Source: an uncultured Chloroflexia bacterium (GTDB lineage: Bacteria > Chloroflexota > Limnocylindria > Limnocylindrales > CSP1-4). Taken from it: a stretch of 25,079 nucleotides of DNA. This document shows, one piece after another, positions 916 to 18,415 of the stretch. Position 1 is the stretch's first letter. Every line of letters starts with the position of its first letter. The position numbers were made by a program, and so were the translations under genes. The stretch is taken from contig CAVQJC010000016.1 of NCBI GenBank assembly GCA_963712745.1, forward strand, positions 1 to 25,079, read 5' to 3'. Below the pieces are notes generated by a model. That model made no database searches and was not told the origin of the DNA. It worked only from the letters and a program-made list of their open reading frames with translations.

Positions 916-1272
916 GAAACCTATCCTCTCACCCCCCTTCGAGCGCCTCGGACACCGCCCCCCTGGGCGCTCCCAGGGAATAGAGACGCCCGCGACACGA
1001 TGGGTTCCATCTTCTTGGGCTTGAGGGACGGCGGGAGTCTCTAGCTGGGCCAAGCGTGTCCGCGTCGCACCAAGGCGGGCGCCACTTCGCCGACCCGGAC
1101 GCACTCCGCCCAGAGCGGTGGCCCGAGGCGCGGAACGCCGGCTGCCATGCGGAGCCCTACCTCAGGGGGCTGACCATCGAGCGATGAGAGGCCGGCCGGT
1201 CTCGCCCGACGATCGGCACCCCCCGAAGCATGTCCACCTTGCTTCAGACGATAACGTTCAGCCCATAACAAG

Positions 1273-1295
1273 GCCCTCACCGCATCGGTGAGGGC
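1273..1295. terminator. 10-bp perfect hairpin inside repeat copy 1
   Basis: GCCCTCACCG-CAT-CGGTGAGGGC; followed by CTTGTTAT on the minus strand. Confidence 0.65.
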
Positions 1296-1333
1296 TCTTC
1301 CTCGTGCAGCACCTACGCCGCATTCCTTTGGAC

Positions 1334-1374
1334 GCATGTCAAGCAAGTGCTCTAACCAGCTGAGCTAGCCGCCC
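1334..1374 (-). tRNA. 5' half only of tRNA-Val(GAC) (tRNA fragment)
   Basis: Minus strand GGGCGGC-TA-GCTC-AGCTGGTTA-GAGC-A-CTTGC-TT-GAC-AT-GC: acceptor 5' strand, intact D-arm and anticodon GAC, then non-tRNA sequence. No T-arm or acceptor 3' strand was seen in the window. Confidence 0.9.
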
Positions 1375-1384
1375 GAGTCGTCAC

Positions 1385-1413
1385 ACGATACCAGAGGCTC
1401 ACCGGGCCGTCAC
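1385..1413 (-). promoter_or_regulatory. sigma70-like promoter for the tRNA half
   Basis: GTGACG (1408-1413), 17 bp, TATCGT (1385-1390) with an extended -10 TG; 10 nt upstream of tRNA base 1. Confidence 0.65.
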
Positions 1414-1588
1414 TCGCGGGACGATGGTGAGTCGTGGTCAAGGCCGGGAAGGCTTGGTGCGGCCAGTCTGATCGGGGCGAGAGGGGTATCGCCAGCTTGG
1501 CCCACCTCCGATTCCGGTCTCGATTCGTGCTCGAGAACGCGAGTCCGGCGGCGAGATCGTGGCCCACCGCGTACCGGAAGGCTGGCTG

Positions 1589-1846
1589 ATGACCAACCAG
1601 CGGCCGACCCGCCGGCAGCTCGAGGTCCTGCGCGCGTACATCCGGGCTGGCTCCGTGGCGGCTGCGGCGCACGAACCGCAGCTGTCCGAGACGACGGTCC
1701 GTCAGCATCTCTCGGGGCTCTACCGCCGGACCGGCTGCCTCAATGCTGCCCAGGCGGCCTTCCACTTGGGCCGAGGCGACCTCGACGGGGTGACGCTGCG
1801 GACGTCTGAGGCGAGGGCGACCGGCTCGGGCGCGCCGCGCAGGTAG
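1589..1846 (+). CDS. Small solo LuxR/GerE-type helix-turn-helix protein
   Basis: MTNQRPTRRQLEVLRAYIRAGSVAAAAHEPQLSETTVRQHLSGLYRRTGCLNAAQAA matches the LuxR C-terminal pattern (T-x-R-x-x-E-V-L...SE-x-TV-x-x-H). The true stop may be near 1793 if a G is spurious. Confidence 0.75.
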   Translation: MTNQRPTRRQLEVLRAYIRAGSVAAAAHEPQLSETTVRQHLSGLYRRTGCLNAAQAAFHLGRGDLDGVTLRTSEARATGSGAPRR

Positions 1847-2452
1847 CGGTACACCAGCGCCGCCGCGATCGCCCCGACGACCGGACCGACGAGGTAGAGC
1901 CAGATGGCCGTAAGGTCGGCGCTCACGATGGCAGGGCCGAGCGAGCGGGCCGGGTTCATGGAGGCCCCGCTGATCGGTCCGCCGACGAGCGCTCCGAGCG
2001 CGACGGTGCCGCCGATGGCGAGGGCTGCCGCCTCCCCACCGTGCGGGTGTCGGTGGCGACCGCGGTGATGACGAGCATGAGGAAGAAGGTGAGGAGCGCC
2101 TCCCAGGCCAGCGACTGGAGCTCGCCGCCCGACGGCTGCGTGAGGCCGAGGTCGGCACCGTCACCCAGCGAGATGCGCAGCACGAGCGCGCCGAGCGTGG
2201 CACCGGTCACCTGGGCCACGCCGTAGGTCGCGACCCGCGACCACGGGAAGTGGCGACCGACCGCGAAGCCCACCGAGACCGCCGGGTTGAAGTGGGCCCC
2301 GCTGATGTGCCCGAGGGCGTAGATCATGACCGCGATGACGAGCCCGAAGGCGAGCGGCACCGCGGGCTGCCCAGCTGGCCGACCGCGATGGCGCCACAGC
2401 CGAAGAAGACGAGCGCGAAGGTGCCGAGCGCCTCGGCGAGGTGGGCCCTCAC
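1720..2452 (-). CDS. MIP family aquaporin/aquaglyceroporin (arsenite-channel context), frameshifted
   Basis: AEALGTFALVFFGCG, HISGAHFNPAVS and GASMNPARSLGPA (both NPA motifs) spread over three frames. The GTG start overlaps the upstream TGA. Confidence 0.88.
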
Positions 2453-3293
2453 CCGGCGATGACGCTGCCGACGGGCAGGCCCGCGGTCCGCCGCGCGATC
2501 TCGATGAACGGGCCGCAGGCGCTGCGTCAGCTCCTGGCGCGTCCGACGGAAGGCGGCGAGCTTCTGCTCGTCGCGTGCCCTCGACCTCGGCGGGGTCCTC
2601 GAGGCCCCAGTGGAGCGAGCTCGTCGAACCCGGGAAGACGGGGCAGGCCTGGCGGGCGCGGTCGCAGACGGTGATGACGTAGTCGAAGGGCTGCTCGAGG
2701 AAGGGCGCGAGCGCCTTGGACTCCGCACCGGACCAGTCGATGCCGACCTCGGCGAGGACCCGCACGGCGTACGGGTTGACACCCTTGGGCTCGGTACCGG
2801 CGGACTCGACCTCGAAGTCGGCCCCACCGAGATGCGTGAGCAGCGCCTGGCCGATCTGGCTGCGGGCCGAGTTGCCGGTGCACACGAAGAGCACGCGGAT
2901 GGGGTGGTCGGTCATCGTGGTCTCCCTGGTGGGCCGCGCGACCCGGCCCGCGGCTTCGATGGTCAGCTCGAGGTCGGTGAGCTCGGCGTCGAGCCGCTCG
3001 AGGTCGTCGCGCTGGCGCGCGAGGGCCGCCCGCTGCGCAGCGATGAGCGGGGCCAGGTCGAGGTCGACGGCACCCTGTTCCAGGCACAGCCGCGCCAGTC
3101 GCCCGGCGTCCTCGGGCCCGAGGCCGAGGCGGCGCAACGTGACCACCAGGCGCAGCCTGGCGAGGTCGACCTCGCGGTACTCGCGGTAGCCGTTGTCACC
3201 GCGCTCAGGGGCGGGCAGGACCCCGACCTGCTCGTACCAACGCACGGCGCTAGGCGCGACTCCGGCACGGCGAGCGAGTTCGGCGATCCTCAT
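2449..3293 (-). CDS. arsC: MerR-family HTH fused to thioredoxin-type (LMW-PTP fold) arsenate reductase; indels near the 3' end
   Basis: N-terminal MRIAELARRAGVAPSAVRWYEQVGVL...NGYREY (MerR). C-terminal VLFVCTGNSARSQ, ITVCDRARQACP and HWGLEDP (ArsC). The tail continues DEQKLAAFRRTR...FIEIARR...IAG* to a stop at 2449. Confidence 0.88.
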
Positions 3294-3299
3294 GACGGG

Positions 3300-3330
3300 A
3301 CCGTATACCTTCGAGTGACTCGAAGGTCAA
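3300..3330 (-). promoter_or_regulatory. MerR-type promoter/operator with 19-bp spacer, leaderless transcript
   Basis: TTGACC (3325-3330), 19 bp, TACGGT (3300-3305). Perfect dyad ACCTTCGAGT-G-ACTCGAAGGT (3307-3327). The ATG is 6 nt after the -10 and has no RBS. Confidence 0.85.
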
Positions 3331-3420
3331 GGGCTCCCCGGCGAGTTACGCCTGGCCAGGTGGGCTGGACCCCTGGCCCGCCCGAGAGGGCCAGTCGGCC
3401 CTGTGACTCCTCATCGGCTG

Positions 3421-3460
3421 ATGTCACATCGTTGATGAGACATCAATCGTTGGGGATGAT
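3421..3460 (+). promoter_or_regulatory. Putative ArsR operator upstream of the + strand ars operon
   Basis: AT-richer patch with overlapping dyads ATGTCACATC/GATGAGACAT (9/10) and TTGATG-AGA-CATCAA, just before ATG 3463. Confidence 0.5.
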
Positions 3461-3462
3461 CG

Positions 3463-3687
3463 ATGCACTGCCATGAATGCGCCCGGATGGGAGCAGAGCG
3501 GATGGCCGTCGCCATCTGCCGGTCCTGCTCGGTGGCCCTGTGCAAGGACCATCTCGTCGCGTCGTTCTACAGCGACCGGGTGCCGCAGTATGGATGCGAC
3601 CACCAACCCGATCGGCCCTTCCCCGCGCCGCGCGCTGCGGTCCACTCGATGGCCGGGTCGGTCGCCGGCCGGGACGGCTCGGCATGA
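3463..3687 (+). CDS. Small Cys-rich protein, DUF2180-like
   Basis: MHCHEC...AVAICRSCSVALCKDHL (CxxC, CxxC, CxxH). The stop overlaps the next ATG (ATGA). Confidence 0.72.
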   Translation: MHCHECARMGAERMAVAICRSCSVALCKDHLVASFYSDRVPQYGCDHQPDRPFPAPRAAVHSMAGSVAGRDGSA

Positions 3688-4205
3688 CCACGACGGGCGA
3701 GCCGGCCGTGCGCATCGGGACCGTGCGCCCCAAGCACCCCGCCGCGCCGGTGTACCTGCTCGACGTCCACGCGGTCCGTGGTGGGCGGACGCGTGCTGAC
3801 GGTGCGCTCTGGGATGGCGTCCTCAACGCCACCCCGGACGACACGAACGACGCGCCCTCGCCCATCGAGGCGTTCATGGCCGCGCTCGCGGGCTGTCTCG
3901 TGCGCAACCTGCGCTCGATGGCCGACGGCCGTCGCATCACGCTCGAGCGGGCCGACCTCCACCTCGCGGCGACCCGCTCGGACGACCCACCCGCCGTGAC
4001 CTCGCTCATCGTCGACCTCGACGTCGTCGCGGACGCCGAGCCGGAGCGCGTCCGACGGGTGGTCGAGCAGGCGCTCCGCTACGGGACCATCACGCGGACG
4101 CTTCACCGGGCCTGCCCGCTCGTCATCAACCTGTCCATCGACGGCGAGCCCGCCCTCGACGTCGAAGCCCTCCTCACCATGAACGCCATCGGAGATGACC
4201 AGTGA
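3684..4205 (+). CDS. OsmC/Ohr-like family protein
   Basis: PSPIEAFMAALAGCL motif and 'ALRYGTITRTL' at the usual second-Cys position; translationally coupled at both ends. Confidence 0.75.
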   Translation: MTTTGEPAVRIGTVRPKHPAAPVYLLDVHAVRGGRTRADGALWDGVLNATPDDTNDAPSPIEAFMAALAGCLVRNLRSMADGRRITLERADLHLAATRSDDPPAVTSLIVDLDVVADAEPERVRRVVEQALRYGTITRTLHRACPLVINLSIDGEPALDVEALLTMNAIGDDQ

Positions 4206-5327
4206 CCGCCAGCCGCCTGCTCGCGAAGCTCGAGGACTTCCGCCTGCTGCCGATCTTCGTCATCCTCAGCATGGCCATCGGCATCGCCATCGGCAAGCTG
4301 CTCTCGATCTTCGGACTTCGAGCTGACCCCGCCCATCGACGCCCTCAAGGCCATGGCGGACGGCACGTTCGAGCTCTCGGTCGCGAGCGCCATCAGCCTG
4401 GGCGTGCCCATCGGCCTGTTCATGATGATGTACCCGGCCATGACCAACGTCCGCCTGGGCGAGGTCGGCACGGCCTTCCGCTCGCCGCGGCAGCTGGCTG
4501 TCGTGCTCTTCTTCAACTTCGCGGTCGCGCCGTTCCTGATGCTGCTGCTGGCCGACATCTTCGTCAGCGACCCGGAGCTGCACACCGGCCTCGTGCTGTA
4601 TGGCCTCGCGCCCTGCATCGCGATGGTCATCATCTTCACCTACCTGGCCAAGGGCAACGTGCCCATGGCCCTCGTCTTCGTGGCCGTGAACTCCGTCCTG
4701 CAGATGCTGCTCATCCCGGTCTATGCGCGCCTGCTCATCGGCAACGTCGAGTTCGACGTCCTCGTCGTGGGCCAGAGCGTGCTGCTCTACCTGGGCCTGC
4801 CGCTGGTGCTGGGCGTGCTCACGCGCATCCTCGTCGTGCGAAGGGGCGGCGAAGCGGCGATGGACCGCCTGAAGCCGGGCTTGAACGCCCTGTCGATCGT
4901 GGGCCTGCTGTTCACGCTCATCGTGATGTTCTCGCTAAAGGGCGACCTCATCCTCGAGCAGCCGGGCATCGTGCTCGAGATGGCCATCCCGATGACCATC
5001 TTCTTCGCGGTCATGTTCTTCCTCGTCCTCTACATCGGCTCGCGCCTGCACTTCAGCTACGAGGACGGTGTGGCGGTGGCCTTCAACGCCACCGGGCGCG
5101 ACTTCGAGATCGCCATCGCCATCGCCATTACGGCCTTCAGCCCGACGGTCGCCCTGGCCACCGTGGTGGGCCCGCTCATCGAGGTGCCGGTCATGCTGTT
5201 CCTGGTGTGGGCCGCGACCCGCCTGGCGCCCCGCTGGTTCGGGACGACGGTCCGCGACCGGCTGGACACCACGGTCGGCGCAGTCACGAGTGAGACGCCA
5301 GCGACCGATCCGAAGGTGGCCCACTGA
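4202..5327 (+). CDS. acr3: Acr3 family arsenite efflux permease (frameshift near 4312)
   Basis: IGLFMMMYP, GLAPCIAMV, RDFEIAIAIAI and GPLIEVPVML motifs. The N-terminus lies in a different frame from GTG 4202. Confidence 0.92.
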
Positions 5328-5659
5328 TGGCGACGAGGACCGAGCTCCCGGTCGTGCCCGAGCTTCGGTTCGACCTGCCCCGACCCGACGTCAGCGAAGC
5401 AGCACGAGTGGCGGCGCTGTGCGGCGAGCCCGTCCGCGCCGGCATCCTCGCTATCCTGCGCGACGGACCCCACTGCGTCTGCGAGATGGCGGCCGCGCTC
5501 GATGAACGCCAGAACAACGTCAGCAACCACCTCGCCAAGCTGCGCGAGGCCGGGCTCGTCCGGACCAGCCGGCACAAGGTCGATGCGCGCTGGGTCTACT
5601 ACGAGCGCGACGAGGCGGCCATCGCCGCAGCTGCTGAGGCATTGGCCGCGGTCCTCTGA
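5327..5659 (+). CDS. arsR: ArsR/SmtB metalloregulator
   Basis: HCVCEM alpha3 Cys motif, VSNHLAKLREAGLV and RWVYY. Confidence 0.92.
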   Translation: MATRTELPVVPELRFDLPRPDVSEAARVAALCGEPVRAGILAILRDGPHCVCEMAAALDERQNNVSNHLAKLREAGLVRTSRHKVDARWVYYERDEAAIAAAAEALAAVL

Positions 5660-6708
5660 TGGGCACCCTCACCCTCCATCGCCACGAACTGCCCTTCTGG
5701 CCCACGGCCGCCCTCGCCGCGCTCGCCTGGCTCATCGCCTGGTTCGCAGCCTGGCCCTTCAGCCAGTGGGTCGCGTTCGACCTGCTCGGCCTCGAGCACG
5801 GCAGCTCGCTCGGCGAAGCGGTGGCCTTCTTCCTCTACGACGTGCCCAAGGTGCTGCTGCTCCTGCTGGGCATCGTCACGGTCGTCAGCTTCCTGCGCTC
5901 GTACGTGCCGCCCGAGCGGGTCCGTTCCGCGCTCGCGGGCAGGAACGTGGTCGGGGGCACCGTGGCCGCCGCGCTCTTCGGCATCATCACGCCCTTCTGC
6001 TCCTGCTCGGCGGTCCCGCTCTTCATCGGCTTCCTGCAGGCCGGCATCCCGATCGGGGTCACGCTCGCCTTCCTCATCAGCTCCCCGCTGGTGAACGAGG
6101 TCGCGCTGGTCCTGCTGTGGGGCCTGTTCGGCTGGCAGATCGCATTCATCTATATGGTCGCGGGCCTGTCGATCGCCATCGTGGGCGGACTGATCCTTGG
6201 CCGACTGCCGCTCGAGGGCTTCCTCCAGCCCTGGGTGCAGGACATCCGTGGTGCCGGTGGCGGCGCCGAGGTCGTGGAGGTCAAGCCCTCGACCGAGGAG
6301 CGGCTGCGCGAGGCCTGGGGCTCGACCCGCGACCTCGTGCGCAAGGTCTGGCCCTGGGTCGTCATCGGCATCGGCGTCGGCGCCTTCATCCACGGCTTCG
6401 TACCCACCGACGTCATCGTCGACATCGGCGGGGCCGACAACCCGTTTGCCGTCCCGCTCGTGACCGTCCTGGCCGTGCCCCTCTACGCGGGCGCCGCCGG
6501 GGTCATCCCCATCGTCGAAGCGCTCCTCGACAAGGGCCTGCCGCTGGGCACCGTGCTGGCCTTCATGATGGCCACCGTCGCCATCAGCCTGCCCGAGTTC
6601 CTCATCCTCCGGCGCGTCGCCCGCCTGCCACTGCTGGCCATCTTCCTGGGTGTCGTGGTCAGCGGCATCCTCGCGGTCGGCTACCTCTTCAACGCCCTCG
6701 GTATGTGA
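5659..6708 (+). CDS. arsP: DUF318 permease (ArsP-like organoarsenical efflux)
   Basis: FFLYDVPK, TPFCSCSAVPLFIGF, FLISSPLVNE and GTVLAFMMA...SLPE. Confidence 0.88.
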   Translation: MGTLTLHRHELPFWPTAALAALAWLIAWFAAWPFSQWVAFDLLGLEHGSSLGEAVAFFLYDVPKVLLLLLGIVTVVSFLRSYVPPERVRSALAGRNVVGGTVAAALFGIITPFCSCSAVPLFIGFLQAGIPIGVTLAFLISSPLVNEVALVLLWGLFGWQIAFIYMVAGLSIAIVGGLILGRLPLEGFLQPWVQDIRGAGGGAEVVEVKPSTEERLREAWGSTRDLVRKVWPWVVIGIGVGAFIHGFVPTDVIVDIGGADNPFAVPLVTVLAVPLYAGAAGVIPIVEALLDKGLPLGTVLAFMMATVAISLPEFLILRRVARLPLLAIFLGVVVSGILAVGYLFNALGM

Positions 6709-6736
6709 TGCCCGCAGCATCGAAAGGAGAACCCTC

Positions 6737-6976
6737 ATGGTGAAGATCGAAGTGCTCGGCTCCGGCTGTGCCAACTGCAAGGCCGTCGAGGCCAACGCTC
6801 GCGAGGCCGTGAACATGGCCGGCATCGAGGCGGAGATCGTGAAGGTCACCGACTACGCCGAGATCGCCTCGCGTGGCGTGATGACCACGCCGGGCCTGGT
6901 CATCGACGGTCAGGTCCGCTCGACCGGCCGCGTCCCGTCGGCCGGTGACATCGCCGAGTGGCTCGTCGCGTCCTGA
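6737..6976 (+). CDS. Small thioredoxin-like redox protein (MTH895-type)
   Basis: KIEVLGSGCANC...GVMTTPGLVIDG; RBS GAAAGGAG. Confidence 0.9.
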   Translation: MVKIEVLGSGCANCKAVEANAREAVNMAGIEAEIVKVTDYAEIASRGVMTTPGLVIDGQVRSTGRVPSAGDIAEWLVAS

Positions 6977-7013
6977 GCCGACGCGACACGCAGGAAGGAA
7001 AGGAGGTCCGATC

Positions 7014-7283
7014 ATGACGGACACCAAGACCGCGCTCGACAGCACCACTGTCACGCCGGTCATCAGCCACTGGATCGATGGACACCCCGTGGAGGTGCTC
7101 CCTGAGCAGACCGGCCCGGTGTACGACCCCGCGACCGGCCAGGTCGTCGCGCGGGTGCCGCGCGGCGGCGCCAGCGAGGTCGACCGCGCCGTGGCTGCCG
7201 CCGCGGCGGCCTTCCCGGCCTGGCGCGACACGCCGCTCATCGCGCGCAGCCAGATCTTCTTCGCCTTCCGCGAGCTGGTGTAG
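7014..7283 (+). pseudogene. N-terminal 89-aa fragment of an aldehyde dehydrogenase (methylmalonate-semialdehyde dehydrogenase-like)
   Basis: Strong RBS AAGGAGG. ISHWIDG...PVYDPATGQV...EVDRAVAAAAAAFPAWRDTPLIARSQIFFAFRELV then TAG; no continuation seen in other frames. Confidence 0.85.
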
Positions 7284-7374
7284 TGGCTGGGCTCATCCAT
7301 CTCGGACCACACTGCACGCTGCGGCAGCCCAAGGGGATCGTCGAGGTCTTCGCTCGCTCGGTCCCAGCCTGGTC

Positions 7375-7818
7375 TCAGGCGGGAGCCTCCGCGAGACGCT
7401 TGAGGTTGGCAAGTACCTCGGTGCCGGTCTTGCGGGCGCTGCGAGCCGCGAACCAGCCGATGAGCTTGCCGATCGGGCCATAGGGGAACTCGATGCGATC
7501 GTTGAAGGTGAAGCGACTGCCCGCATCGACAGCCTCGATGACCCAGCGCTCGTCGTAGCTCTTGAAGAAGTCGCTGCGCACCTGGCGGAAGCCGAACGCG
7601 AACGGAGGTTGCCACTCGGTCGTCTCGAAGTCGATGGTGTAAGTCCGGCCGGACGCTTCCTCGTCCCAGGTGAACGTGGAGCCCACCCCGCCCGGCTCGC
7701 TCGTCCAGTCGTACCGCTTGAGCGCCGTGAACCACTGCATGGCCTTGTCGGGTTCGACAAGGAACTCCCAGACACGCTCGGGTGGCGCCTTGATATCGAC
7801 TGACATCGTCACAAACAT
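7375..7818 (-). CDS. SRPBCC (START/polyketide cyclase-like) family protein
   Basis: SVDIKAPPERVWEFL...GVGSTF...LANLKRLAE; RBS GGAAGGGAG. Confidence 0.85.
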   Translation of the reverse strand: MFVTMSVDIKAPPERVWEFLVEPDKAMQWFTALKRYDWTSEPGGVGSTFTWDEEASGRTYTIDFETTEWQPPFAFGFRQVRSDFFKSYDERWVIEAVDAGSRFTFNDRIEFPYGPIGKLIGWFAARSARKTGTEVLANLKRLAEAPA

Positions 7819-8160
7819 GGGCGATCTCCCTTCCTTCTCCGAGTGCCCATCATGACCGGGCATGCAAGCGGATCAGGCCGGGGAGACGCGCCGGTCGTGC
7901 TCGAGGACGTGACCGGCCGACTCGGATCCGGCGGGTCGACAGGCTGAAGGCTGGCTGAGGCGAAGCAGCACCCGACCCGGCGCCAGCTCGAGGGACGCGC
8001 CAGCACGGCGCAGAGGTCGGGCCACGGTAGCAGCGGCGACTCCAGTGCGACGATGGCGTCGGTCCCTCCTTGGCGAGCGACGGCCAAGAGGGTCAGGAAC
8101 CATGGCATGCTGGCTATCGACGATCAGTCCGCGATGGCCTCAGCGAAGGGAGAACGATCG

Positions 8161-8685
8161 ATGCGCGAGACGACCAAAGCATCGGCCACCGACGTGGACT
8201 GGACGGTCACCGTCACCGAACCGCTTCCCGACTGCCCGAGCGTGGAGGCATGCTGGGAGAAGCTCGCGACCCAGACGACATGGGGCGAATGGAGGTCCGC
8301 GAGCAAGTTGCGCGGAAGCGACGTCACGACCTCGCTCATCCCCCCGGCAACGGAGCCCCTCACGGTGGGCGAGGAGTACGTGGTGCGCGTCGGGAGATTC
8401 ATGCGGATCCGCTGTCGCGTGCTCGAGTCCACTGCCGGTGGCTCCGCCGACGGCACTGACGGAGAAGCGGTCTTCGATGCGCTGGGGCTAGCCCTCGGTG
8501 GTCTCGTCAAGGCCCGCTTCCGGTTCACCGTCTTCCGAGGCGAGGATGGCATCGTCATGGCCCGGGCCCAGGAGCGGATCATGTCGTTGTCCGTGCTCGC
8601 GCCGGCCAGGGAGACGCTCGAGAACGAGCACAGACACACCTTCAGGGACCTCAACGCGAGCTTCCTGCCACCCTCGCGAGCGTAG
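8161..8685 (+). CDS. Hypothetical protein, possibly SRPBCC-like
   Basis: RBS GAAGGGAG; 'EACWEKLATQTTWGEW...PLTVGEEY' resembles an SRPBCC N-terminus. Confidence 0.55.
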   Translation: MRETTKASATDVDWTVTVTEPLPDCPSVEACWEKLATQTTWGEWRSASKLRGSDVTTSLIPPATEPLTVGEEYVVRVGRFMRIRCRVLESTAGGSADGTDGEAVFDALGLALGGLVKARFRFTVFRGEDGIVMARAQERIMSLSVLAPARETLENEHRHTFRDLNASFLPPSRA

Positions 8686-8694
8686 GGAACCCGC

Positions 8695-8895
8695 CCCGCC
8701 GCCAGCTCGAGGTCCGGCGGGTACATCCGGGCCGGCTCGGTCGCGGCCGCCGCCTACGAGCTCGGCATCAGCGAGACGACGGTGCGCCAGCATCTCTCGG
8801 GGCTGTACCGGCGGACGGGCTGCGTGAACGCGGCGCAGGCGGCGTACTGGCTGGGGACGGGCCATCGGCGTCTGCGCACGGCCAGGTTTCCCTGA
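8695..8895 (+). pseudogene. Degenerate second copy of the solo LuxR-type HTH gene
   Basis: RRQLEV / YIRAGSVAAAAYELGISETTVRQHLSGLYRRTGCVNAAQAAYWLG; no start codon, and a 2-nt deletion relative to the copy at 1589. Confidence 0.85.
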
Positions 8896-8970
8896 TTGCT
8901 ACGGCAGCACTTCATCGCATCGCCGGTGGCCACACAAACACGGTCTCACTCGATCGTCATGGCAAGCAGA

Positions 8971-8999
8971 GGCCCCGGCTCGAGGATCGAGCCGGGGCC
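8971..8999 (-). terminator. 13-bp perfect hairpin ending the minus-strand operon
   Basis: GGCCCCGGCTCGA-GGA-TCGAGCCGGGGCC, about 35 nt past stop 9034. Confidence 0.75.
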
Positions 9000-9033
9000 C
9001 CGTCGACCCATCAGAAAGCCGAGGGTGGCGTGA

Positions 9034-9213
9034 CTAGAAGCGGCGACGCCCGGGGGTGACGGCGGCACCGACGACGGCGGCCTTGGCGACGGGAGACGGT
9101 CCCGGCTTGACGGCGGCGCCGACGACGGCGGCCTTGGCCACCGGCGAGGGGCCGGGCTTGACGGCGGCGGTGACGACCGCGGCCTTGGCGACGCGGGATG
9201 GTCGTAGTGGCAT
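9034..9213 (-). CDS. 59-aa basic peptide made of three 17-aa repeats
   Basis: MPLRPSR-VAKAAVVTAAVKPGPSP-VAKAAVVGAAVKPGPSP-VAKAAVVGAAVTPGRRRF. RBS GAAGGAG; synonymous variation between the 51-bp units. Confidence 0.75.
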   Translation of the reverse strand: MPLRPSRVAKAAVVTAAVKPGPSPVAKAAVVGAAVKPGPSPVAKAAVVGAAVTPGRRRF

Positions 9214-9214
9214 A

Positions 9215-9673
9215 TCAGGCTCCTTCTGCCTCGAGTGCCGCGTCGGCTTCGACCGCGGCGATGATGGCCTGGATGGGGATGCGTCCGTCGGCGACCAGCT
9301 GGGCACCGGCGCGGCGCAGGGCCGAGGCGAACGGCGCGGCCCACAGGTTCTCGTAGATGAGCGCGGCCGCCACGCTGCCCGGGGCCATGGCCTCCGCGAG
9401 CGTGACCACATCGTCGGCTGCGAGGGTCTCGGCCAGCTCGGCCTCGATGCGGGCGAACTCGCCGAGGTCGGGCACGTCCGACAGCTCCATCGCGTCGACC
9501 GAGCCATCCTCGTCCTTGACGATGATGACCAGGTCCATGATCCGGATGATGCCGGCGTCATGGAGCCTGAGCAGCTCTGTCGCACCCTCGCCCGTGAAGT
9601 TCTGCTGCCCCTCCGGGAACTCGACGATCAGGTAGTCGACGGGCCCCAGCTCGTCGAGCGTTCTCTCGGTCAT
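9215..9673 (-). CDS. DUF6325 (DUF1269-like) family protein
   Basis: LGPVDYLIVEFP...GIIRIMDL...YENLWAAPFASALRRAGAQLVADGRIP; RBS GGAGGAG. Confidence 0.82.
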   Translation of the reverse strand: MTERTLDELGPVDYLIVEFPEGQQNFTGEGATELLRLHDAGIIRIMDLVIIVKDEDGSVDAMELSDVPDLGEFARIEAELAETLAADDVVTLAEAMAPGSVAAALIYENLWAAPFASALRRAGAQLVADGRIPIQAIIAAVEADAALEAEGA

Positions 9674-9830
9674 GACTCCTCCATCTCGTTGCGGTAGCGT
9701 GGTTCCACAGCCTGGGCCCACGCTCGTCGTGGCGCCCGGCCTGGCCGCGGCCCACGACTTGGTTCGGCTCGGTCTCGTGCTTGCGCCCAGCTGACCGACG
9801 CGGGCCTGTCAGGGCCCACGGGGCGACGGT

Positions 9831-10385
9831 TCAATCGTGTTCGTTCCCCGGGTGAAGCATGCGGCTCTCCCGTGCTGGGAGTTGCAGCCGCTCGCGGTCG
9901 AGCTCGTACGTCCAGGGCAGCCCCGAGTTCTTCCAGCCGTTCTTCATGCGCATGCCATCGAAGACGCTTTCGGGATCCTTGACCTTGGCCCCCTCCATGC
10001 CGTCGAGGATATTGAAGGCCTTGGTGAAGCCGGCCTTGGCCATCATGTCGATGGCCATCGCGGCGCGACCACCGGAGCGGCACGAGACCAGGATCGTCTC
10101 GTCGGGCCGGGCCCAGCGTGTCACCGCCGCCACGAACTCAGGGTTGAGATCCCAGCGGAAGCCCTGCCGCTCGGCATCCCACTCGAAGGACTGGAAAGCG
10201 AACGGGATGTTGACGGCCATCGGGGGATGGCCGACGAAGACATACTCCTCCGGCGTACGGCAGTCGAGGATCTTCAGATCAGGATCGGCCTGCCACATGT
10301 CGTACGCCTCCTTGGCGGTGACGTAGAGCCCAAGGCTCGTCCGCCGCTCCTGGGCGATCGAATCGTCCGGGTGACTGCTGGTCAC
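9831..10385 (-). CDS. Rhodanese-like sulfurtransferase
   Basis: ILDCRTPEEY..VGHP, active loop CRSGGR, NILDGMEG and NGWKNSGLPW. Confidence 0.9.
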   Translation of the reverse strand: MTSSHPDDSIAQERRTSLGLYVTAKEAYDMWQADPDLKILDCRTPEEYVFVGHPPMAVNIPFAFQSFEWDAERQGFRWDLNPEFVAAVTRWARPDETILVSCRSGGRAAMAIDMMAKAGFTKAFNILDGMEGAKVKDPESVFDGMRMKNGWKNSGLPWTYELDRERLQLPARESRMLHPGNEHD

Positions 10386-10648
10386 TCGGCGTCCTTGTCC
10401 GCGTCAGTGACTTCCTGCTTGTCGATGCCGAGCTCGTCCATCGCCTGTGCCAGCTCCTGATCGGTCAGCTCCTCGGGGTCCACACCGGTGTGCTGCTGGA
10501 CCTGCTCGGCCTGCTGCTTGCTCATCTTGTAGGCGCCGAAAGCGAGCATCCCGCCCACCAGCAGCCGGCGGCGACGGCGACGGCGGCGCATCGCTCGCAT
10601 GGCAGGAGCTGGTCCTCGTCCGGGTCCTCTTCGTGGTCCGAGTGGCAT
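10382..10648 (-). CDS. Small hypothetical protein with poly-Arg, short hydrophobic segment and acidic tail
   Basis: MPLGPRRGPGRGP...RRRRRRRRLLVGGMLAFGAYK...PEELTDQELAQAMDELGI; RBS GGAGG; overlaps the rhodanese start. Confidence 0.72.
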   Translation of the reverse strand: MPLGPRRGPGRGPAPAMRAMRRRRRRRRLLVGGMLAFGAYKMSKQQAEQVQQHTGVDPEELTDQELAQAMDELGIDKQEVTDADKDAE

Positions 10649-10718
10649 GGTGGTTTCCTCCGATACGTTGCGTTGGACGACAGGCGACGCAGCCGAGATG
10701 GCTGCGATTGGTCGTCGA

Positions 10719-11906
10719 TTACCCGAGTCGCATTCCCTCGACCTCAAGTCCGCCACCCGAGGGCAGCTTGCTCCAGCTCCGTCGCTCCCATTCCTCCTCG
10801 AGCACTTGCGTTGCCGCCTGCTCCAGGAACTCAGGACGAGCCCACTCGTCGACGTCGAAATCGCTCTTGATGTACCCGTGGCTGTACATGAAGTCCTTGC
10901 CGATCTTGATGCACTGCATGTTCTGCGCGCTCAGGCTCGGCACCATGTCCACGTCCTTGATGCCCTCGTAGGTGTGCTCGGCATCCAGGTAGAACGTCTG
11001 ACGGTTGAGGATCTCACCGGCGGCGTGCTTGTTGCGGTTGGCCCAGAGGCCCACCTTGATCATGGCCCGCATGTAAGCCAGGACGAGCTCGGGATGCTCG
11101 TCGGCCATGACGTCGGAGCAGGTGATGACGGCAGGCGTGTTGGCGACCTGGATGGTCCAGTCCGGGTGCTTGGACAGGTCGAAGATGGCCTTGATCTCGC
11201 CCGTGGCCTCTGAGAGCTGTCCCAGTTGCCCCATCTGGTTGTAGATGGCATCGACGGTCCCGTCGAGCAGTGCCTTCTCGAGCGGACGGAAGGCGTAGTC
11301 GTGCTTGTGGTCACGGCGCAGCCACAGCTCGGACGGGTTGTTCATGGGCACGACGAGCATCTCGGGCTTGTCGTACCAGTCGTCCGGGTACGGGAACTCG
11401 ACGAGCTCGATGTCGTCCATGGTCATGCCGTGGAGCCTGAGCATGTTCTCGATGCCCATGTGCTCCTGGATGCGCCACCAGTCGTTCTTGATGGTGTTCA
11501 GGCTCTTGGTTAGACCGATCTTCTTACCCTTCAGGTCCTGCACCCGGAAGATCTGGTCGCGGGCACGGACCTGCATCACCCCACCCTCGTAGACCCACGT
11601 CGCCCCCAGCAGCACCGTCCGACGCATGTCGGCGTGGACGTGGATCGGCGGGTACAGGCCACCGAAGCGGATGAGGTTGTCGAGGTTGTGGATGTAGTGG
11701 GGGTAGAAGTTGTTCTCGTTGGCGGAGCGGAAGTAGGCGTACTCGACGCCGATCTTCTTGTACTCCTCACGGCACCAGCCCAGCTCCTGGTCCACATTGT
11801 TGGCGGAGACCATGGGGCAGTTGGTGTACCACACCTCGCTCCAGTCGAGAGGGACGGTCGTGGAAACCCTGCCCTCACCGTCAGTGGCTGTGGTCTGAGC
11901 GTTCAT
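10719..11906 (-). CDS. DszB-like desulfinase / SsuA-NMT1 fold protein without signal peptide
   Basis: WYTNCP, HYIHNLDNLIRFGGLYPP, TVLLGAT, DLKGKKIG and C-terminal GYIKSDFDVDEWARPEFL; RBS AAGGAAGG before ATG 11906. Confidence 0.75.
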   Translation of the reverse strand: MNAQTTATDGEGRVSTTVPLDWSEVWYTNCPMVSANNVDQELGWCREEYKKIGVEYAYFRSANENNFYPHYIHNLDNLIRFGGLYPPIHVHADMRRTVLLGATWVYEGGVMQVRARDQIFRVQDLKGKKIGLTKSLNTIKNDWWRIQEHMGIENMLRLHGMTMDDIELVEFPYPDDWYDKPEMLVVPMNNPSELWLRRDHKHDYAFRPLEKALLDGTVDAIYNQMGQLGQLSEATGEIKAIFDLSKHPDWTIQVANTPAVITCSDVMADEHPELVLAYMRAMIKVGLWANRNKHAAGEILNRQTFYLDAEHTYEGIKDVDMVPSLSAQNMQCIKIGKDFMYSHGYIKSDFDVDEWARPEFLEQAATQVLEEEWERRSWSKLPSGGGLEVEGMRLG

Positions 11907-12089
11907 CAGCGCCTTCCTTACTCTGTTGCGACCCAAGCATCGTTCGACGACCGTTCGCACCCGATCACGGTCTCGTCCTCGCAATGTGCGTCGCGTGCCC
12001 GCAGTCCGCATCGGACGAATCGCCCGATGCCTGCCACCGGTGACGGCGCTTGGCTTGGGCCAGCAGGCGCACGGTGAGGAGGATCCAGC

Positions 12090-12489
12090 GTGAAGAGCGT
12101 GCGAGACTGGTCGCGGAGGCCAGCAACAAGATCGAGACATCTCTCCGAACGACGCTCAGGCGGAGCTCGAGGCCGGGACCGCCGTCTTCATCGACGTCCG
12201 CGAGCCGGTGGACTGGCAGGCCATATCGCGGGCGCGGACCAGATCCCGCGGCGGCCTGCTTGAGTTCGTCTCGGACCCCGAGTGTGGACCGCGCTTGCCG
12301 CCCAATCTCAAGTACGACCTGGACCCCACTCGCCGGGTGATCGTGTACTGCGACTCGGGCGCCCGTGGCGCGCTCGCCGCGCACTCGATGCAAGATGTGG
12401 GCTACGAGCGTGTCGCCAGTCTCGATGGCGGGATCACCGCCTGACGGGAAGCAAGGCTGCCCCTCGCAGAGCACCGCAGCGGGCTGTGA
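12090..12489 (+). pseudogene. Rhodanese-domain gene with several frameshifts and an in-frame TGA at the conserved Trp
   Basis: RBS GAGGAGG. Pieces LVAEA, FIDVREP, HIAGA, GLLEF, VIVYCDSGARGALAA and LDGGITA*REARLPL. Confidence 0.8.
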
Positions 12490-12525
12490 CCCGGGGCGCT
12501 CGGGCCCAGCCCAGCCTGCGATCGG

Positions 12526-14880
12526 TCAGTCCTCCGGCGTCCCATGGGCGAGCGGCAGGCTCGGTAGGGGCTCGATCAGGCCCAGCTCGATGGCCCGCTC
12601 GACGGCCTGGCTACGACTGGTGGCCTGAAGCTTGGCGTAGACGGCGATGGCCTGGCTCTTGATGGTGTGCCGCGATAGGGAGAGCCGGCCGGCGATCTCC
12701 TCGAACGTCAGGTAGGTCGAGAGGAACGGCAGCAATCGCAGCTCGGCGGGGGTGAGAGCGGACGAGCCCACGAGCGTCTCGGCCGCGTCGGCCAACTGCC
12801 CTCGAATCTCGTCGAACTCAGCGATGAGCGTCCCCAGAGCCGGGCGCCGTCGAGCGATCCGTTCGGCTTCAGCGACCGTGGCGCGGGCGCCTCCGATATC
12901 CGCGATCGCGAGATAGGCACGCGCGACGTGGAGCAGTGCGCCCAGAGCGAGCCACGGTGTGGCGTAGGTAGCCTCTGCGCGAGCCAGTTGCGCGTGGACG
13001 AGCTCGGCCCGACCTTGTGCCTGGTCTCCCTTATGGATCGCCACGCGTGCCGCGACCGCGTGGACGAGAAGTGACGAGGCGATATCGGCGAGGTTGGTCC
13101 GCTCGAAGGCAGCATGGCTCTCCTGGGTCAGTCGTGCGGCCGACCGCCAGTCCCCCAGGTCGATCGCGTTCGACGCTCGGCTCGCCAGAGCGATGAAGGG
13201 GTTGACATCACTCACCCGCGCCGAGTCGACGGCCTCGATGAAGGCTGTGCCGGCAGCGTCGGTATCGCCCAGCAGCCGGTGCGCCCATCCGAGCAGCACG
13301 AACGCGAACATGCGCCACGGATGACCCGGCTCCTCTTCCGTGGTCGCGATCACCGCGTCCGAGAGCATGGCGGTGGGTCCGCCCCGAGCCATGAACGCGC
13401 GCAGCATCGCCTTCGACGATCGGAACGACGACGCGCCGTCCTCAGGCGCGCCGGTCAGGTCGGACCGCTCCGCGATGTCAGCCATGCGGTCCGCGGCGCC
13501 GGGTCGGCCGTTCAGCGCGTAGATCCAGGCTGCGACGACGGCTAGTGACGGGTGTCGCGCGACCGCCGAGTCGTCGAAGCTGGCGAACCAGCGCTGGAGC
13601 CGATCGTCATGGCCACCGTGATGCATCGACAGGGCCGCGCCCGCGATGAGCCGGGCCGCGTCGTCGACGTCCCCCCCGGCCAGCGCATGCTCGATCGCCA
13701 GCTCCGTGCGTCCGTGGTCCGCGAACCAGGCCGCAGCCCGACGATGAAGCTCGGGCGCCGTTCCCGGCTCACGTCGCTCGAGCTCCGCCGAGAGGAAGTC
13801 ACGCAGCAGCGCGTGGTAGCGAAAGGCCACGTCCGGCCCCTCGACCCGCCCGATGAGCTGGTTCGCGTGGGCCAGCGAACCCAGCCGCTCCTCGGCATGC
13901 GGGACTGCAGCGACGGACTCGGCAAGGCTCGGCTCGACGACTTCGAGGATCGATGTCCGCGTGAGGAGGGCGACGTCGTGGTCGCTCAGACCTCGCTCGA
14001 GCTCAACCCGCAGATACTCAGCGACGTAGCCGACCCCGCCCGAGATGTCGGCTGCGTCCCGGCCCCCGCCGTGTCGTGTGCGTTCGAGGGTCAAGAGGTA
14101 GATCCCGGCAGCCCAGCCCTCGGCCCGCTCGCTCAGGAGCCGGGCCTCGGTCGCATCGAGTGGCTGGCCCATCGCGGACACCAGGGCGAGCGTCTCCTCC
14201 GGGTCGAGCGCGAGGTCCGCACCGCCGAGCTCGAGCAGCGCCTGCCGCGCCCGATACCGCGCCAGCGGCAGATCGAGGTCGACCCTCGCCGCCATTGCGA
14301 CCTGGAAGCCGGGAGGCAGGAGATCGAGGAGCTGAGCCAGGGCATCGAGACAGATCCGATCGGTCAGCTGATGGACGTCATCGAGGACGAGCAGGCCGGG
14401 CTGTTCCCAGCGGGACAGCTCCCAGGCGATCCGCGGCACGGCCGTCGCGAGGACCCGATGTCCATGGACGGCGATAGCAGCTCGCATCGACGCGTCGATC
14501 GGTCGAACCCGGTCGAGTGACGAGGCGACATTCGTGAGAAAGACGCTGGGGTCATTGTCGAGATCGTCGAGCGTCAGCCACGCGACATCCCGTTCCTCCC
14601 GTGCCACCCATCGGGAGAGCAGCACGGTCTTGCCGTAACCGGGTGGTGCAGTGACCGACACGATCGACTTTCGCGGCTCGGCTGTGAGCTGGCGGATGAG
14701 CCGCTCTCGCGGCACGGTCACCGGGGGCGACGTGCGCGGGCGGAACTTGGCCTCGACAAGCGGAAAGGACGGCCGGAAGACCGAGCGACGCTCGCCTCGG
14801 AGCGTGGAGGCTCCAGGACCGGTCACGCCGCTGGTCGGAGACTCGGTGGCTTCGACTGTCCGTCTGGTCTGACCGCTCAC
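12526..14880 (-). CDS. MalT-like LuxR-family regulator (AAA/STAND, TPR-like region, C-terminal HTH)
   Basis: Walker A APPGYGKT, Walker B LLVLDDVH, EGWAAG, FRYHALLR and C-terminal LTPAELRLL...TIKSQAIAVYAKL. Confidence 0.92.
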   Translation of the reverse strand: MSGQTRRTVEATESPTSGVTGPGASTLRGERRSVFRPSFPLVEAKFRPRTSPPVTVPRERLIRQLTAEPRKSIVSVTAPPGYGKTVLLSRWVAREERDVAWLTLDDLDNDPSVFLTNVASSLDRVRPIDASMRAAIAVHGHRVLATAVPRIAWELSRWEQPGLLVLDDVHQLTDRICLDALAQLLDLLPPGFQVAMAARVDLDLPLARYRARQALLELGGADLALDPEETLALVSAMGQPLDATEARLLSERAEGWAAGIYLLTLERTRHGGGRDAADISGGVGYVAEYLRVELERGLSDHDVALLTRTSILEVVEPSLAESVAAVPHAEERLGSLAHANQLIGRVEGPDVAFRYHALLRDFLSAELERREPGTAPELHRRAAAWFADHGRTELAIEHALAGGDVDDAARLIAGAALSMHHGGHDDRLQRWFASFDDSAVARHPSLAVVAAWIYALNGRPGAADRMADIAERSDLTGAPEDGASSFRSSKAMLRAFMARGGPTAMLSDAVIATTEEEPGHPWRMFAFVLLGWAHRLLGDTDAAGTAFIEAVDSARVSDVNPFIALASRASNAIDLGDWRSAARLTQESHAAFERTNLADIASSLLVHAVAARVAIHKGDQAQGRAELVHAQLARAEATYATPWLALGALLHVARAYLAIADIGGARATVAEAERIARRRPALGTLIAEFDEIRGQLADAAETLVGSSALTPAELRLLPFLSTYLTFEEIAGRLSLSRHTIKSQAIAVYAKLQATSRSQAVERAIELGLIEPLPSLPLAHGTPED

Positions 14881-15230
14881 CGGACCACGATACGATGGCA
14901 GGGCAGGCTCGCGCTCCAGAAGGGACGCAGGTCTCTCTTGGGTCGTGGTGTGATACGACCGCTGTAGGCCGCCTCGCTATCGGTTTGGACGCGCGCCGTG
15001 CACCCGATCCACGCACGGACCTCGTCGGGGTGTCGTGCAGCGGTAGAGCACATGCTTGGCATCACGTCCGCAGCCTCGTCACCGATGCCATCGTCATCCC
15101 CTGGCTCGTGGACCCGGGACTGTTCCCCGTCCGCCGGCATGACCGATGATCGCTACCCGCCGGGTCAATGTCGTTGACCCCGGCCGGTCTTGAGGGCTGC
15201 GCGGACGTGATCAGGCATGTCCAAGCGTGG

Positions 15231-15367
15231 TTCAGCCGATAACGTTCAGCTCATGACAAGGCCCTCACCGCATCGGTGAGGGCTCTTCTTCATGCAGGAC
15301 CTACGCCGCATTCCTCTGGACGCATGTCAAGCAAGTGCGCTAACCAGCTGAGCTAGCCGCCCGAGTC
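15231..15367. repeat. Direct repeat copy 2 (att-like: arm, hairpin and 5' half tRNA-Val)
   Basis: 129/137 identical to 1243-1379; hairpin at 15261-15283 is identical. Confidence 0.95.
15322..15362 (-). tRNA. 5' half only of tRNA-Val(GAC), with a D-stem mismatch
   Basis: Same 41 nt as 1334-1374 except position 15339 (D-stem GAGC to GCGC). Confidence 0.88.
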
Positions 15368-15372
15368 AGTTC

Positions 15373-15401
15373 ACGACAGCAAATCCGGCCCCACTCGTCA
15401 T
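15373..15401 (-). promoter_or_regulatory. Degenerate promoter for tRNA half copy 2
   Basis: ATGACG, 17 bp, TGTCGT with extended TG, at exactly the same offsets as copy 1 although the spacer has diverged. Confidence 0.5.
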
Positions 15402-16072: not shown

Positions 16073-16200
16073 GGGTTCAAGGAGTCGTCGCAACACCGCT
16101 GTCTTGCTGGACCGAGTGTAGGTGCTCGTCGAGGACCTCCGCTGGCGTCTTCCAGCCGAGGGTCTTGCGGGGTCTGGCGTTCAGCGCTGCCGCGACCGCG
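16073..16200 (-). mobile_element. IS30-family remnant (transposase C-terminus and right end)
   Basis: AVAAALNARPRKTLGWKTPAEVL...GVATTP* ending in GTTGCGACGACTCCTTGAACCC. Confidence 0.88.
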
Positions 16201-18403: not shown

Positions 18404-18415
18404 CGGGGGATGGCC

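Follow-up and report, generated by a model that had tools for sequence, protein, structure and literature searches.

Genomic islands that leave a fragment of the 5' end of their target transfer RNA (tRNA) gene are documented as rare. In the account given of the Islander collection, where an integrase is required in each island, 159 of 3,919 islands (4%) have a 5' fragment and 2,083 sites are centred on the anticodon (PMC4383910), and Krupovic et al. describe 5'-distal recombination as 'considerably less frequent' (PMC6563490). Here we report on fragments of this type in an uncultured Chloroflexia bacterium of soil or sediment, found on the 25,079-bp contig C16 of assembly G000, the whole of which is called the window. 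The window contains two copies of a module in which the first 41 nt of tRNA-Val(GAC), preceded by a promoter-like region, are joined to a non-tRNA arm. The best reading of these repeats is that they are attL-type scars of tandem accretion; it is likely that elements with a Xer-like tyrosine integrase, each restoring the 5' part of the gene by a crossover in the anticodon loop, accumulated at tRNA-Val(GAC) and then lost their integrase genes to leave islets resembling cis-mobilizable elements (CIMEs).

The arrangement corresponds to that of the tRNA islands with a 5' fragment treated in the Islander report, in that a co-oriented displaced fragment lies upstream of the intact gene, with the island between the two and the break point at the anticodon loop. 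It differs in scale: stacks of 7 to 12 units occur at a locus here, whereas that report counts only 4 tandems of at least three. Because almost none of these units retains an integrase, the Islander filter would reject them.

Accretion of this kind has a parallel in Streptococcus, where integrative and conjugative or mobilizable elements (ICEs and IMEs) are described as integrating, decaying to CIMEs that bear attL and attR but no longer their integration genes, and being joined by newcomers that enter the restored att site, the same three steps as envisaged here (PMC5704250). The streptococcal elements of that description use the 3' end of their target and are usually found as tandems of two or three; by contrast, no conjugation genes were seen here, and the one complete tRNA-Val element is phage-like. 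Closer in phylogeny are the ssrA islands of Dehalococcoides, a member of the same phylum, for which many tandem islands are reported at one small-RNA gene within 100 kb, fifteen of the islands being without an integration module and possibly cis-mobilizable (PMC3146451). As described in that source, they depend on a serine recombinase (DsiB, CcrB-like) and leave, downstream of ssrA, 20-bp repeats of its 3' end, whereas the arrays considered here are associated with a Xer-like tyrosine recombinase and have 41-nt 5' halves with promoter, upstream of the gene, at no fewer than six tRNA loci. No serine recombinase was detected on the window, and its repeats are tRNA 5' halves, not ssrA 3' ends.

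Anatomy of the junction module

A repeat search of the window returned a single family of direct repeats, at 1240-1393 and 15228-15381 (154 nt, 90% identity, 13,988 nt from start to start; BLAST E = 4.9e-56 for copy 2 against copy 1), with both copies co-oriented on the minus strand. Read from 1374 to 1334, copy 1 was found to match nt 1-41 of the intact tRNA-Val(GAC) gene (C10:7833-7909) at 41/41 positions, and copy 2, read from 15362 to 15322, at 40/41. In both, the identity to the tRNA ends 2 nt beyond the anticodon loop (TTGACAT), where the common arm begins. The sequence-only reading, which had described two co-oriented tRNA-Val(GAC) halves with a shared arm at this distance, is thereby confirmed. 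Its statement that the window has no 3' half also stands, as no tRNA was detected in the window by ARAGORN and the 3' part of tRNA-Val(GAC) occurs once in G000, within the intact gene on C10.

An alignment of 27 copies, drawn from metagenome contigs as well as several genomes, revealed a module that starts with ~45 nt of upstream sequence bearing GTGAC-type and TATCGT boxes and continues with the 41 tRNA nt, GTC, 5-6 variable bases and a conserved ~85-nt arm, in which a 10-bp hairpin precedes a T-rich tail. The arm is alignable in all 27 copies and is 87-95% conserved among the seven of G000. The upstream region of copy 1 is 84% identical over 132 nt to that of the intact gene on C10, and positions -45 to -1 are conserved throughout the 27 copies as well as upstream of the native tRNA gene in G001, a genome in which the site is empty. 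Since the same boxes stand at this uninserted gene, each unit carries a duplicate of the sequence that natively precedes the tRNA, which may serve as its promoter. A terminator scan of copy 1 gave 1 site where 0.1 were expected from shuffles, and the hairpin of copy 2 (15260-15284) received a terminator-like score on the plus strand. All 10 pairs of the hairpin were retained in a consensus fold of 24 distinct copies, its sole variant being a C to U change in 4/24, with which a G-U pair remains possible on the sense strand only.

Arrays upstream of an intact tRNA-Val gene

Seven half-and-arm copies were found in G000, of which four share one orientation in a run on C8 (73133, 81321, 86722 and 94037), one is on C9 (7173) and two are in the window (15362 and 1374), together with one intact tRNA-Val(GAC) at C10:7833. 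The left end of C9 stops in a promoter-like region, ~10 nt short of where a further tRNA half would begin. Scans for the arm core returned additional copies in G022 (four), G024 (two and remnants), three other genomes and 12 metagenome contigs, so that the array expected from the window is borne out both within the genome and in relatives; no match was found in the viral contigs scanned. In 18/18 extra contigs that have both parts, the arm core motif lies exactly 80 nt after the first base of the half, and the arm was never found among the extra contigs on its own or joined to a tRNA 3' half.

Co-oriented 5' fragments upstream of the intact gene are present on single contigs in G024, G021 and G319. 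On one strand of a 1.2-Mb contig of G024, junctions at 1030675 and 1032106 (one decayed, one perfect) are followed by the intact tRNA at 1039209, with internally deleted module remnants between them. An intact tRNA-Val(GAC) had been predicted to the left of base 1 of the window; the gene exists and in G024 lies at the predicted end, but in G000 it is on another contig, and its placement relative to base 1 cannot be read because the window is a whole contig. The end of C8, C16, C9 and the start of C10, which are unlinked in the assembly, would form one array. In G021, the distal tRNA-Val junction (oriented locus ~9335-9470) is decayed and contains two successive partial D-arm-to-anticodon copies, a doubling that may be the trace of two junctions from between which a unit was deleted.

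The locus was compared with that of six congeners, with genes called by the periodicity of G+C content at third codon positions (GC3). The genes downstream of tRNA-Val (C10:7865 onward) are conserved in 6/6 relatives compared, and both flanks of the locus are single-copy in G000. The site is empty in G001, where homologues of C8:47-67.8 kb abut tRNA-Val directly upstream. In G021, L064 and L069, the half and arm come directly after the same host gene and its native intergenic sequence, as in an attL with native upstream sequence. The precise absence of the island from relatives is thus observed at both levels, the empty site and the native upstream sequence shared with these three junctions, in keeping with the earlier expectation of empty-site relatives.

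Integrases beside tRNA genes in related genomes

A complete element was found in G319, of a sister genus (C1:2125864-2137420), where a half matching at 41/41 nt lies 11.56 kb upstream of an intact tRNA-Val and breaks at the same base. Its arm has the first four bases of the window arm and contains the shared 7-mer described below. A Xer-like integrase gene stands at the tRNA-proximal end of this element, directly upstream of and divergent from tRNA-Val(GAC), as it does in G060 and G011. The cargo is phage-like (head maturation protease, phrog_53, 1.5e-76; weak small-terminase and replication-initiator matches), and the element recalls a phage satellite, its size being insufficient for a tailed prophage. 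In G011 the integrase is frame-broken and lies between a decayed half and tRNA-Val, with a remnant of a window-type arm further upstream.

A second complete element was detected in G008, in which a 312-aa tyrosine recombinase (PF00589 1.8e-29, with SAM-like N-domains) is encoded 122 nt upstream of and divergent from an intact tRNA-Pro, and a partial half with a Pro-type arm lies 5.9 kb further upstream (nhmmer 3.1e-11). Among NCBIfam models, those for XerC, XerD, XerA and integron integrases are included in the best matches of this integrase, which does not reach the cut-off of any of them. An identity as the chromosome-dimer resolvase XerC or XerD was rejected, as the scores fall far below the equivalog cut-offs (163.1 bits versus 335.15 for XerC and 144 versus 329.6 for XerD).

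Homologues of the G008 integrase (42-55% identity) are present in 9 more of the 49 genomes of the genus to which G000 belongs. Among the 14 distinct integrase genes, 13 are divergent from the 5' end of a tRNA gene at a distance of 110-190 nt (Arg-TCG in seven cases, Val-GAC in two, and Pro, Ala, Gly-TCC and Arg-TCT in one each) and one is co-directional. In a sample of the phylum, the family was detected at E<=1e-40 in 47 of 401 genomes, a tally that includes the unpublished G408. Thirty loci were fetched, and a tRNA gene stood at the integrase start in 24 of the 27 that could be assessed (10 divergent and 14 co-directional, as assigned by hand from strands and coordinates). The family thus has a constant place beside tRNA genes, and the 5' type is common in it (13/14 in the genus, 10/24 in the phylum sample), a further difference from the described tRNA islands. 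The sequence-only reading had also expected a recombinase adjacent to the intact tRNA-Val; this was borne out in G319, G060 and G011, with G319 providing the complete element, but not in G000.

In G000, a trace of the family was found upstream of tRNA-Lys, where a 110-aa open reading frame (ORF) without Pfam match includes an N-terminal remnant (tblastn to the G008 integrase, 40.7% identity over 54 aa, E 6e-4). At the same tRNA-Lys(TTT) locus (C17:373610-376530), a C-terminal PF00589 remnant (profile positions 126-171) was noted 2.2 kb downstream, in frame with a 650-aa ORF, and an IS630-type DDE_3 transposase gene lies nearby at C17:366336-367418. The sole Resolvase match in G000 is at C1:7391.

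Arrays at other tRNA genes of the same genome

A genome-wide scan of tRNA halves in G000 revealed arrays at six tRNA genes (Table 1), comprising about three dozen integrase-less islets over roughly 185 kb in summed spans if all of C16 and C9 belong to them. Fragments at all six loci break at the anticodon loop, in agreement with the break point proposed from the window: identity ends 2 nt past the loop in Val and Pro and at the last loop base in Lys and Arg, and the Thr 3' fragments start at the loop. These boundaries suggest a crossover within the loop. The Thr and Gly arrays are of the classical 3' type, with 8 extra Thr parts over 53 kb and 6 extra Gly parts over three contig ends.

The largest 5'-type array is that of tRNA-Pro, in which 12 displaced halves, each with a conserved ~100-nt arm, lie upstream of the intact gene in units of 1-6.6 kb with 1-3 genes. 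The half of the intact gene differs by one base from 11/12 of the displaced copies, and the cargo consists of ordinary accessory enzymes in the first 10 ORFs scanned. Many congeners also have arrays of the Pro module, which in every case lie upstream of the gene and in its orientation. No integrase was found on C5, which carries both the Pro and the Thr arrays.

Each 5'-type family (Val, Pro, Lys and Arg) has its own arm. None of the global similarities between these arms exceeded those of shuffles (z -1.0 to 1.0), in a test made weak by its end-gap settings. A 7-mer with 78 occurrences genome-wide is shared by 4/7 Val and 2/2 Lys arms, and in degenerate form by 7/7 Val, 9/14 Pro, 2/2 Lys and 0/1 Arg arms. 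A hexamer at offset 15 occurs in 7/7 Val arms and the Arg arm and is part of a 9-mer with 40 genome-wide occurrences; by our reading of the alignments, the full 9-mer is at offset 15 of the Val and Arg arms. A loose dif-like pattern had no match in G000. On the minus strand of C8:98104-98251, a tRNA-Pro-type half and arm, 85% identical to the C5 module, lies in opposite orientation within the tRNA-Val array region; units or modules seem to move between arrays.

Cargo of the window and exchange with a related genome

The 14 kb between the two modules of the window, which have att-type flanks and no recombinase, integration or transfer genes between them as in a CIME, contain an arsenic-resistance-like block (b) and a regulator and transport block (a) (Table 1). 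The right-hand block was found in G022 at 94.1% identity over 6,148 nt (window 8938-15070), and a further stretch beyond the second junction (16345-20022) at 97.3%. The only two flank proteins that could be compared between G022 and G000 are 55.9% and 75.4% identical, and a recent exchange of cargo between species can therefore be concluded. At its left end the homology stops at 8691, where the window has a truncated helix-turn-helix (HTH) gene and G022 has the full gene followed by promoter, half and arm. The 14 kb therefore derive from two units that were once separate and became joined when a deletion took out the junction between them, and are not the single cassette that had been proposed from the window. 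A profile scan at E<=0.01 detected no decayed junction inside the 14 kb.

At its right end, homology with the G022 cargo is interrupted from 15071 to 16344, a stretch of 1,274 nt that includes junction copy 2, an insertion sequence (IS) fragment with an rve_3 match and a short ORF, in place of which G022 has 679 unrelated nt. Two pieces of public-run contigs stop aligning at 15070, the same boundary. The arrays are remodelled by deletion and replacement besides insertion. The rve_3 fragment is no site-specific recombinase of the module but an IS remnant in the neighbouring unit. The post-arm stretch next to this boundary appears, from the alignment, to contain the 3' end of a small plus-strand membrane ORF.

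The small HTH gene beside junction copy 1 occupies the position of the integrase in the integrase-bearing relatives; its 95-aa product matched no NCBIfam model. About 10 such small stand-alone LuxR/GerE-type genes were noted in G000, several of them adjoining a tRNA gene or half. Within block a, three tandem 51-nt repeats of 83% identity were observed at 9050-9203, in G+C-rich sequence.

Table 1. Positions of the junction modules, cargo genes and related features. Positions without a contig prefix refer to the window; fragment counts include the intact gene.
Feature	Position	Strand	Basis or remarks
Arm, junction copy 1	1240..1333	-	~94 nt; left end of unit running toward base 1
Hairpin, 10 bp with T-rich tail	1273..1295	-	terminator-like on tRNA-sense strand
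Displaced 5' half of tRNA-Val(GAC), copy 1	1334..1374	-	41/41 match to C10:7833-7873
tRNA-promoter-like upstream region, copy 1	1375..1464	-	GTGACG ~17 nt before TATCGT; right end of 14-kb composite unit
Small LuxR/GerE-type HTH gene, 95 aa	1559..1846	+	Pfam GerE 3.3e-05; divergent from tRNA half copy 1
Cargo block b, arsenic-resistance-like	1956..8690		Pfam matches
MerR, low-molecular-weight phosphatase (ArsC-like) and MIP fragment	1956-3293	-	block b, Pfam
OsmC	3477-4205	+	block b, Pfam
SBF/ACR3-type carrier	4353-5327	+	block b, Pfam
ArsR	5327-5659	+	block b, Pfam
ArsP_1 permease	5659-6708	+	block b, Pfam
Aldehyde-dehydrogenase N-terminal fragment	6945-7283	+	block b, Pfam
SRPBCC	7375-7863	-	block b, Pfam
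Second small HTH gene, truncated	8691..8888	+	tblastn, residues 27-73 only (8722-8862)
Cargo block a, regulator/transport	8938..15070		Pfam matches
DUF6325	9215-9721	-	block a, Pfam
Rhodanese	9831-10385	-	block a, Pfam
NMT1-like binding protein	10719-12140	-	block a, Pfam
AAA and LuxR regulator, 784 aa	12526-14880	-	block a, Pfam
Post-arm stretch	15073..15227		aligns with copies in C8, C9, G022 and G022b
Arm, junction copy 2	15228..15321	-	left end of 14-kb composite unit; hairpin 15260-15284
Displaced 5' half of tRNA-Val(GAC), copy 2	15322..15362	-	40/41 match to intact gene
Upstream region, copy 2	15363..15401	-	weaker promoter-like match; part of neighbouring right-hand unit (copy alignment)
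rve_3 integrase-core fragment	15773..16096	-	Pfam rve_3 3.5e-13, 107 aa
Small HTH family, other sites	C8:71576-71815
Small HTH family, other sites	C9:143-388
Small HTH family, other sites	C10:7374-7565		beside intact tRNA-Val
Small HTH family, other sites	C11:5528-5742		beside tRNA-Gly
Small HTH family, other sites	C17:13936-14163
Small HTH family, other sites	C17:36353-36565
Small HTH family, other sites	C20:30917-31105
Small HTH family, other sites	C20:32306-32488
tRNA-Pro(TGG), 5' half	C5:73753-110161		15 copies, 13 in this one run, upstream of gene; array C5:73713-110161
tRNA-Val(GAC), 5' half	C8, C9, C16, C10		8 copies
tRNA-Lys(TTT), 5' half	C17		3 copies
tRNA-Arg(TCG), 5' half	C20		2 copies
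tRNA-Thr(CGT), 3' part	C5:295905-348475		9 copies, downstream of gene; array C5:295866-348510
tRNA-Gly(TCC), 3' part	C11:92-5950; C15:9285, 18845; C20:656766-660461		7 copies

Proposed mechanism and points that weigh against it

By the mechanism that we favour, the att site of an element would combine a duplicate of the tRNA promoter with tRNA nt 1-41 and a ~95-nt arm, and a compact gene for a Xer-like tyrosine integrase would adjoin this site and read away from it. The integrase would recombine the element with the chromosomal tRNA gene in the 7-nt anticodon loop, such that the promoter and 5' half of the element join the 3' half of the host and the gene is restored. The old promoter and 5' half would be displaced upstream and fused to the arm of the element, the hairpin of which probably terminates transcripts from the orphaned promoter. 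Newcomers would repeat the insertion at the restored gene and, as insertion would always take place there, units would stack upstream in a single orientation. Most units would later lose the integrase by deletion to become integrase-less islets, and the 14 kb of the window would be the relic of two such units, fused by deletion with the loss of one junction. Taken together, the empty site of G001, the native upstream junctions of G021, L064 and L069, the single-contig array of G024 and the complete element of G319 support the tandem, 5'-restoring insertion that had been proposed from the window. The tRNA-Pro element of G008, the constant place of the integrase family beside tRNA genes, the anticodon-loop break at six loci, the cassette polymorphism of metagenome contigs described below and the exchange of cargo with G022 also speak for it.

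Several results speak against this mechanism or its application to the window. Some concern the integrase. No tyrosine or serine recombinase was detected on C16, C8, C9 or C10 (six-frame search with PF00589 and PF00239, E<=0.01) and no member of the Xer-like family in G000 at E<=1e-25, such that the island of the window, in contrast to the complete elements of G319 and G008, is without an integrase of its own. None was found near the Val arrays of G021, G022, G024 or three further genomes. As an integrase stands beside 0/27 window-type arms, the window arm is tied to the integrase only via G319 and G011, and the G319 arm has no more in common with it than the break point, its first bases and a single short motif. 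The integrase of G060 lies beside tRNA-Val, yet no far junction was found within 31 kb. The promoter is also in question: the claim that units bring their own is favoured by the conserved upstream region, whereas a strict sigma-70 scan gave 0 sites at either window junction.

Other points concern the order of units. No age gradient was significant along the Pro array (rho 0.21, p 0.51), and G022 has the cargo blocks that flank 15071-16344 side by side with no junction between them, an arrangement for which an extra deletion or replacement event is needed. The contigs C8, C16, C9 and C10 are without physical linkage, in an assembly (20 contigs, 4.2 Mb, 68% G+C, 84.55% complete) with 5.03% contamination. 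Its contigs C1 and C2 have the same order of tRNA genes (Ala, Ile, Ser, Ser, Arg, Ser, Ser) and only ~3.5 kb in common at >=90% identity; because of the shared tRNA order, the bin may mix parts of two related genomes, or else contain a large old duplication.

Alternative explanations

An active, integron-like capture of genes, in which the units are true cassettes recombined in trans by a Xer-like integrase encoded elsewhere, for example by a visiting phage satellite, is distinctly unlikely as an account of the arrays but has several observations on its side. The strong conservation of the arm holds across units of unrelated cargo and across species, and displaced halves carry only 0-3 mismatches. 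Cassettes are polymorphic with breakpoints at module edges: a 1,850-nt stretch that starts 3 nt before the half and takes in arm and cassette is 100% identical in L069 and L073, whose sequences are unrelated upstream of it (native flank in L069, another unit in L073), and L073 and L066 have the upstream unit, half and arm in common at 99%, after which their cassettes differ. The same cassette is therefore found in different array contexts. The 12 units of the Pro array are small, and by our own count 21/28 of its ORFs are in the direction of the tRNA. Toxin-antitoxin-like pairs, noted within the arrays by reading N-terminal sequences (RelE/ParE-like with Phd-like, and a PIN-like gene; C8:71928-72445, C5:84850-85397 and C5:103911-104342), would also suit such a system.

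These features are shared with integrons, which have co-oriented arrays of accessory genes, a repeated recombination module, toxin-antitoxin-like pairs (here by sequence reading) and a simple, two-domain-type tyrosine recombinase. The analogy drawn from the window holds to this extent. It fails in that the arrays of G000, G021, G022 and G024 have no intI by an attI with cassette promoter and no attC sites, the module being a tRNA half and arm, and in that units enter at a tRNA gene with their own promoter and may have several genes on both strands. No platform integrase stands beside the arrays; the window units have many genes, on both strands and with gene fragments, and look like decayed elements; and the frame-broken integrase of G011 and the N-terminal remnant at tRNA-Lys in G000 indicate decay from integrase-bearing elements, which argues for loss of the integrase rather than capture in trans. 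The cassette polymorphism, moreover, fits site-specific events but could equally have arisen by homologous recombination from one module to another. Public reads, searched as Logan contigs of sediment and soil metagenomes (the best run contained 0.37 of the sampled words), gave no joint of ~1340 to ~15328 and no circle-like joint, a negative that decides neither on excision nor on misassembly; loose ends at 1334/1335 resemble the 3' parts of tRNA genes and were taken for intact tRNA genes of other organisms.

Homologous recombination, duplication and gene conversion of a tRNA-promoter repeat, with no site-specific recombinase, could reshuffle such arrays, as the modules are direct repeats of 150-300 nt with ~90% identity, enough for RecA-type exchange. 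The breakpoint between L073 and L066 is at the end of the arm rather than in the loop, and the placement of junctions around shared blocks differs between G022 and G000. As the sole cause, this process is nevertheless highly improbable, since it leaves unexplained how the joint of tRNA half and foreign arm arose at the same nucleotide at four different tRNAs, why complete elements have an integrase at the expected place, and why the integrase family has a fixed position beside tRNA genes.

Little credence can be given to the module as a small-RNA gene, a tRNA 5' half and tail with its own promoter and terminator kept for regulation, with the repeats as a gene family. Conservation of both the promoter-like region and the terminator-like hairpin, pairing of the lone hairpin variant on the sense strand only and a single-sequence fold z-score of -2.46 would be in its favour. 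Beyond the hairpin, however, the consensus fold retains nothing, with no compensatory change on both sides of any pair; Rfam had 0 matches to the module at E<=1; and every copy is in one locus, upstream of the gene that is copied. An assembly or binning artefact, to which the contamination of the bin and the break of C9 at a repeat might point, is hardly conceivable, given the same architecture in the independent assemblies of G021, G022, G024, three further genomes and 12 metagenome contigs and the ~10% of positions at which the two window copies differ.

Significance

Integration at the 5' side of tRNA genes, rare as it is, tandem accretion and CIMEs are known already. What appears to be new is a clade with routine 5' polarity, the size of the arrays (7-12 units, mostly integrase-less) and the occurrence of such arrays at six tRNA genes of a single genome; a narrow literature search, which is no proof of absence, found no description of integrase-less 5'-type arrays in Chloroflexota. 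One integrase family that uses 5' polarity routinely is unusual against its documented rarity. The module offers candidate attP/attB pairs, and two-domain integrases beside tRNAs of at least 15 anticodons are possible tools for targeted integration.

A wider proposal, tentative and in our judgement rather unlikely, is that Chloroflexota of this family have a tRNA-anchored form of gene capture, integron-like and without a resident platform. Integrase-less cassettes with a ~190-300-bp module (promoter, 5' half through the loop, and arm) would be inserted, excised and swapped in trans by Xer-like integrases brought in by phage-satellite-like elements, and each event would renew the tRNA promoter. 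If true, such capture would operate in arrays at six or more tRNA genes that together make up maybe ~4% of the genome.

The arrays have plausible adaptive cargo, including arsenic-resistance-like genes, transporters, pairs of extracytoplasmic function (ECF) sigma and anti-sigma factors, and hydrolases. Nearly all such islets would escape the standard programs for island detection, which accept an island only if it has an integrase, and gene flux in uncultured soil and sediment Chloroflexota is perhaps badly under-counted.

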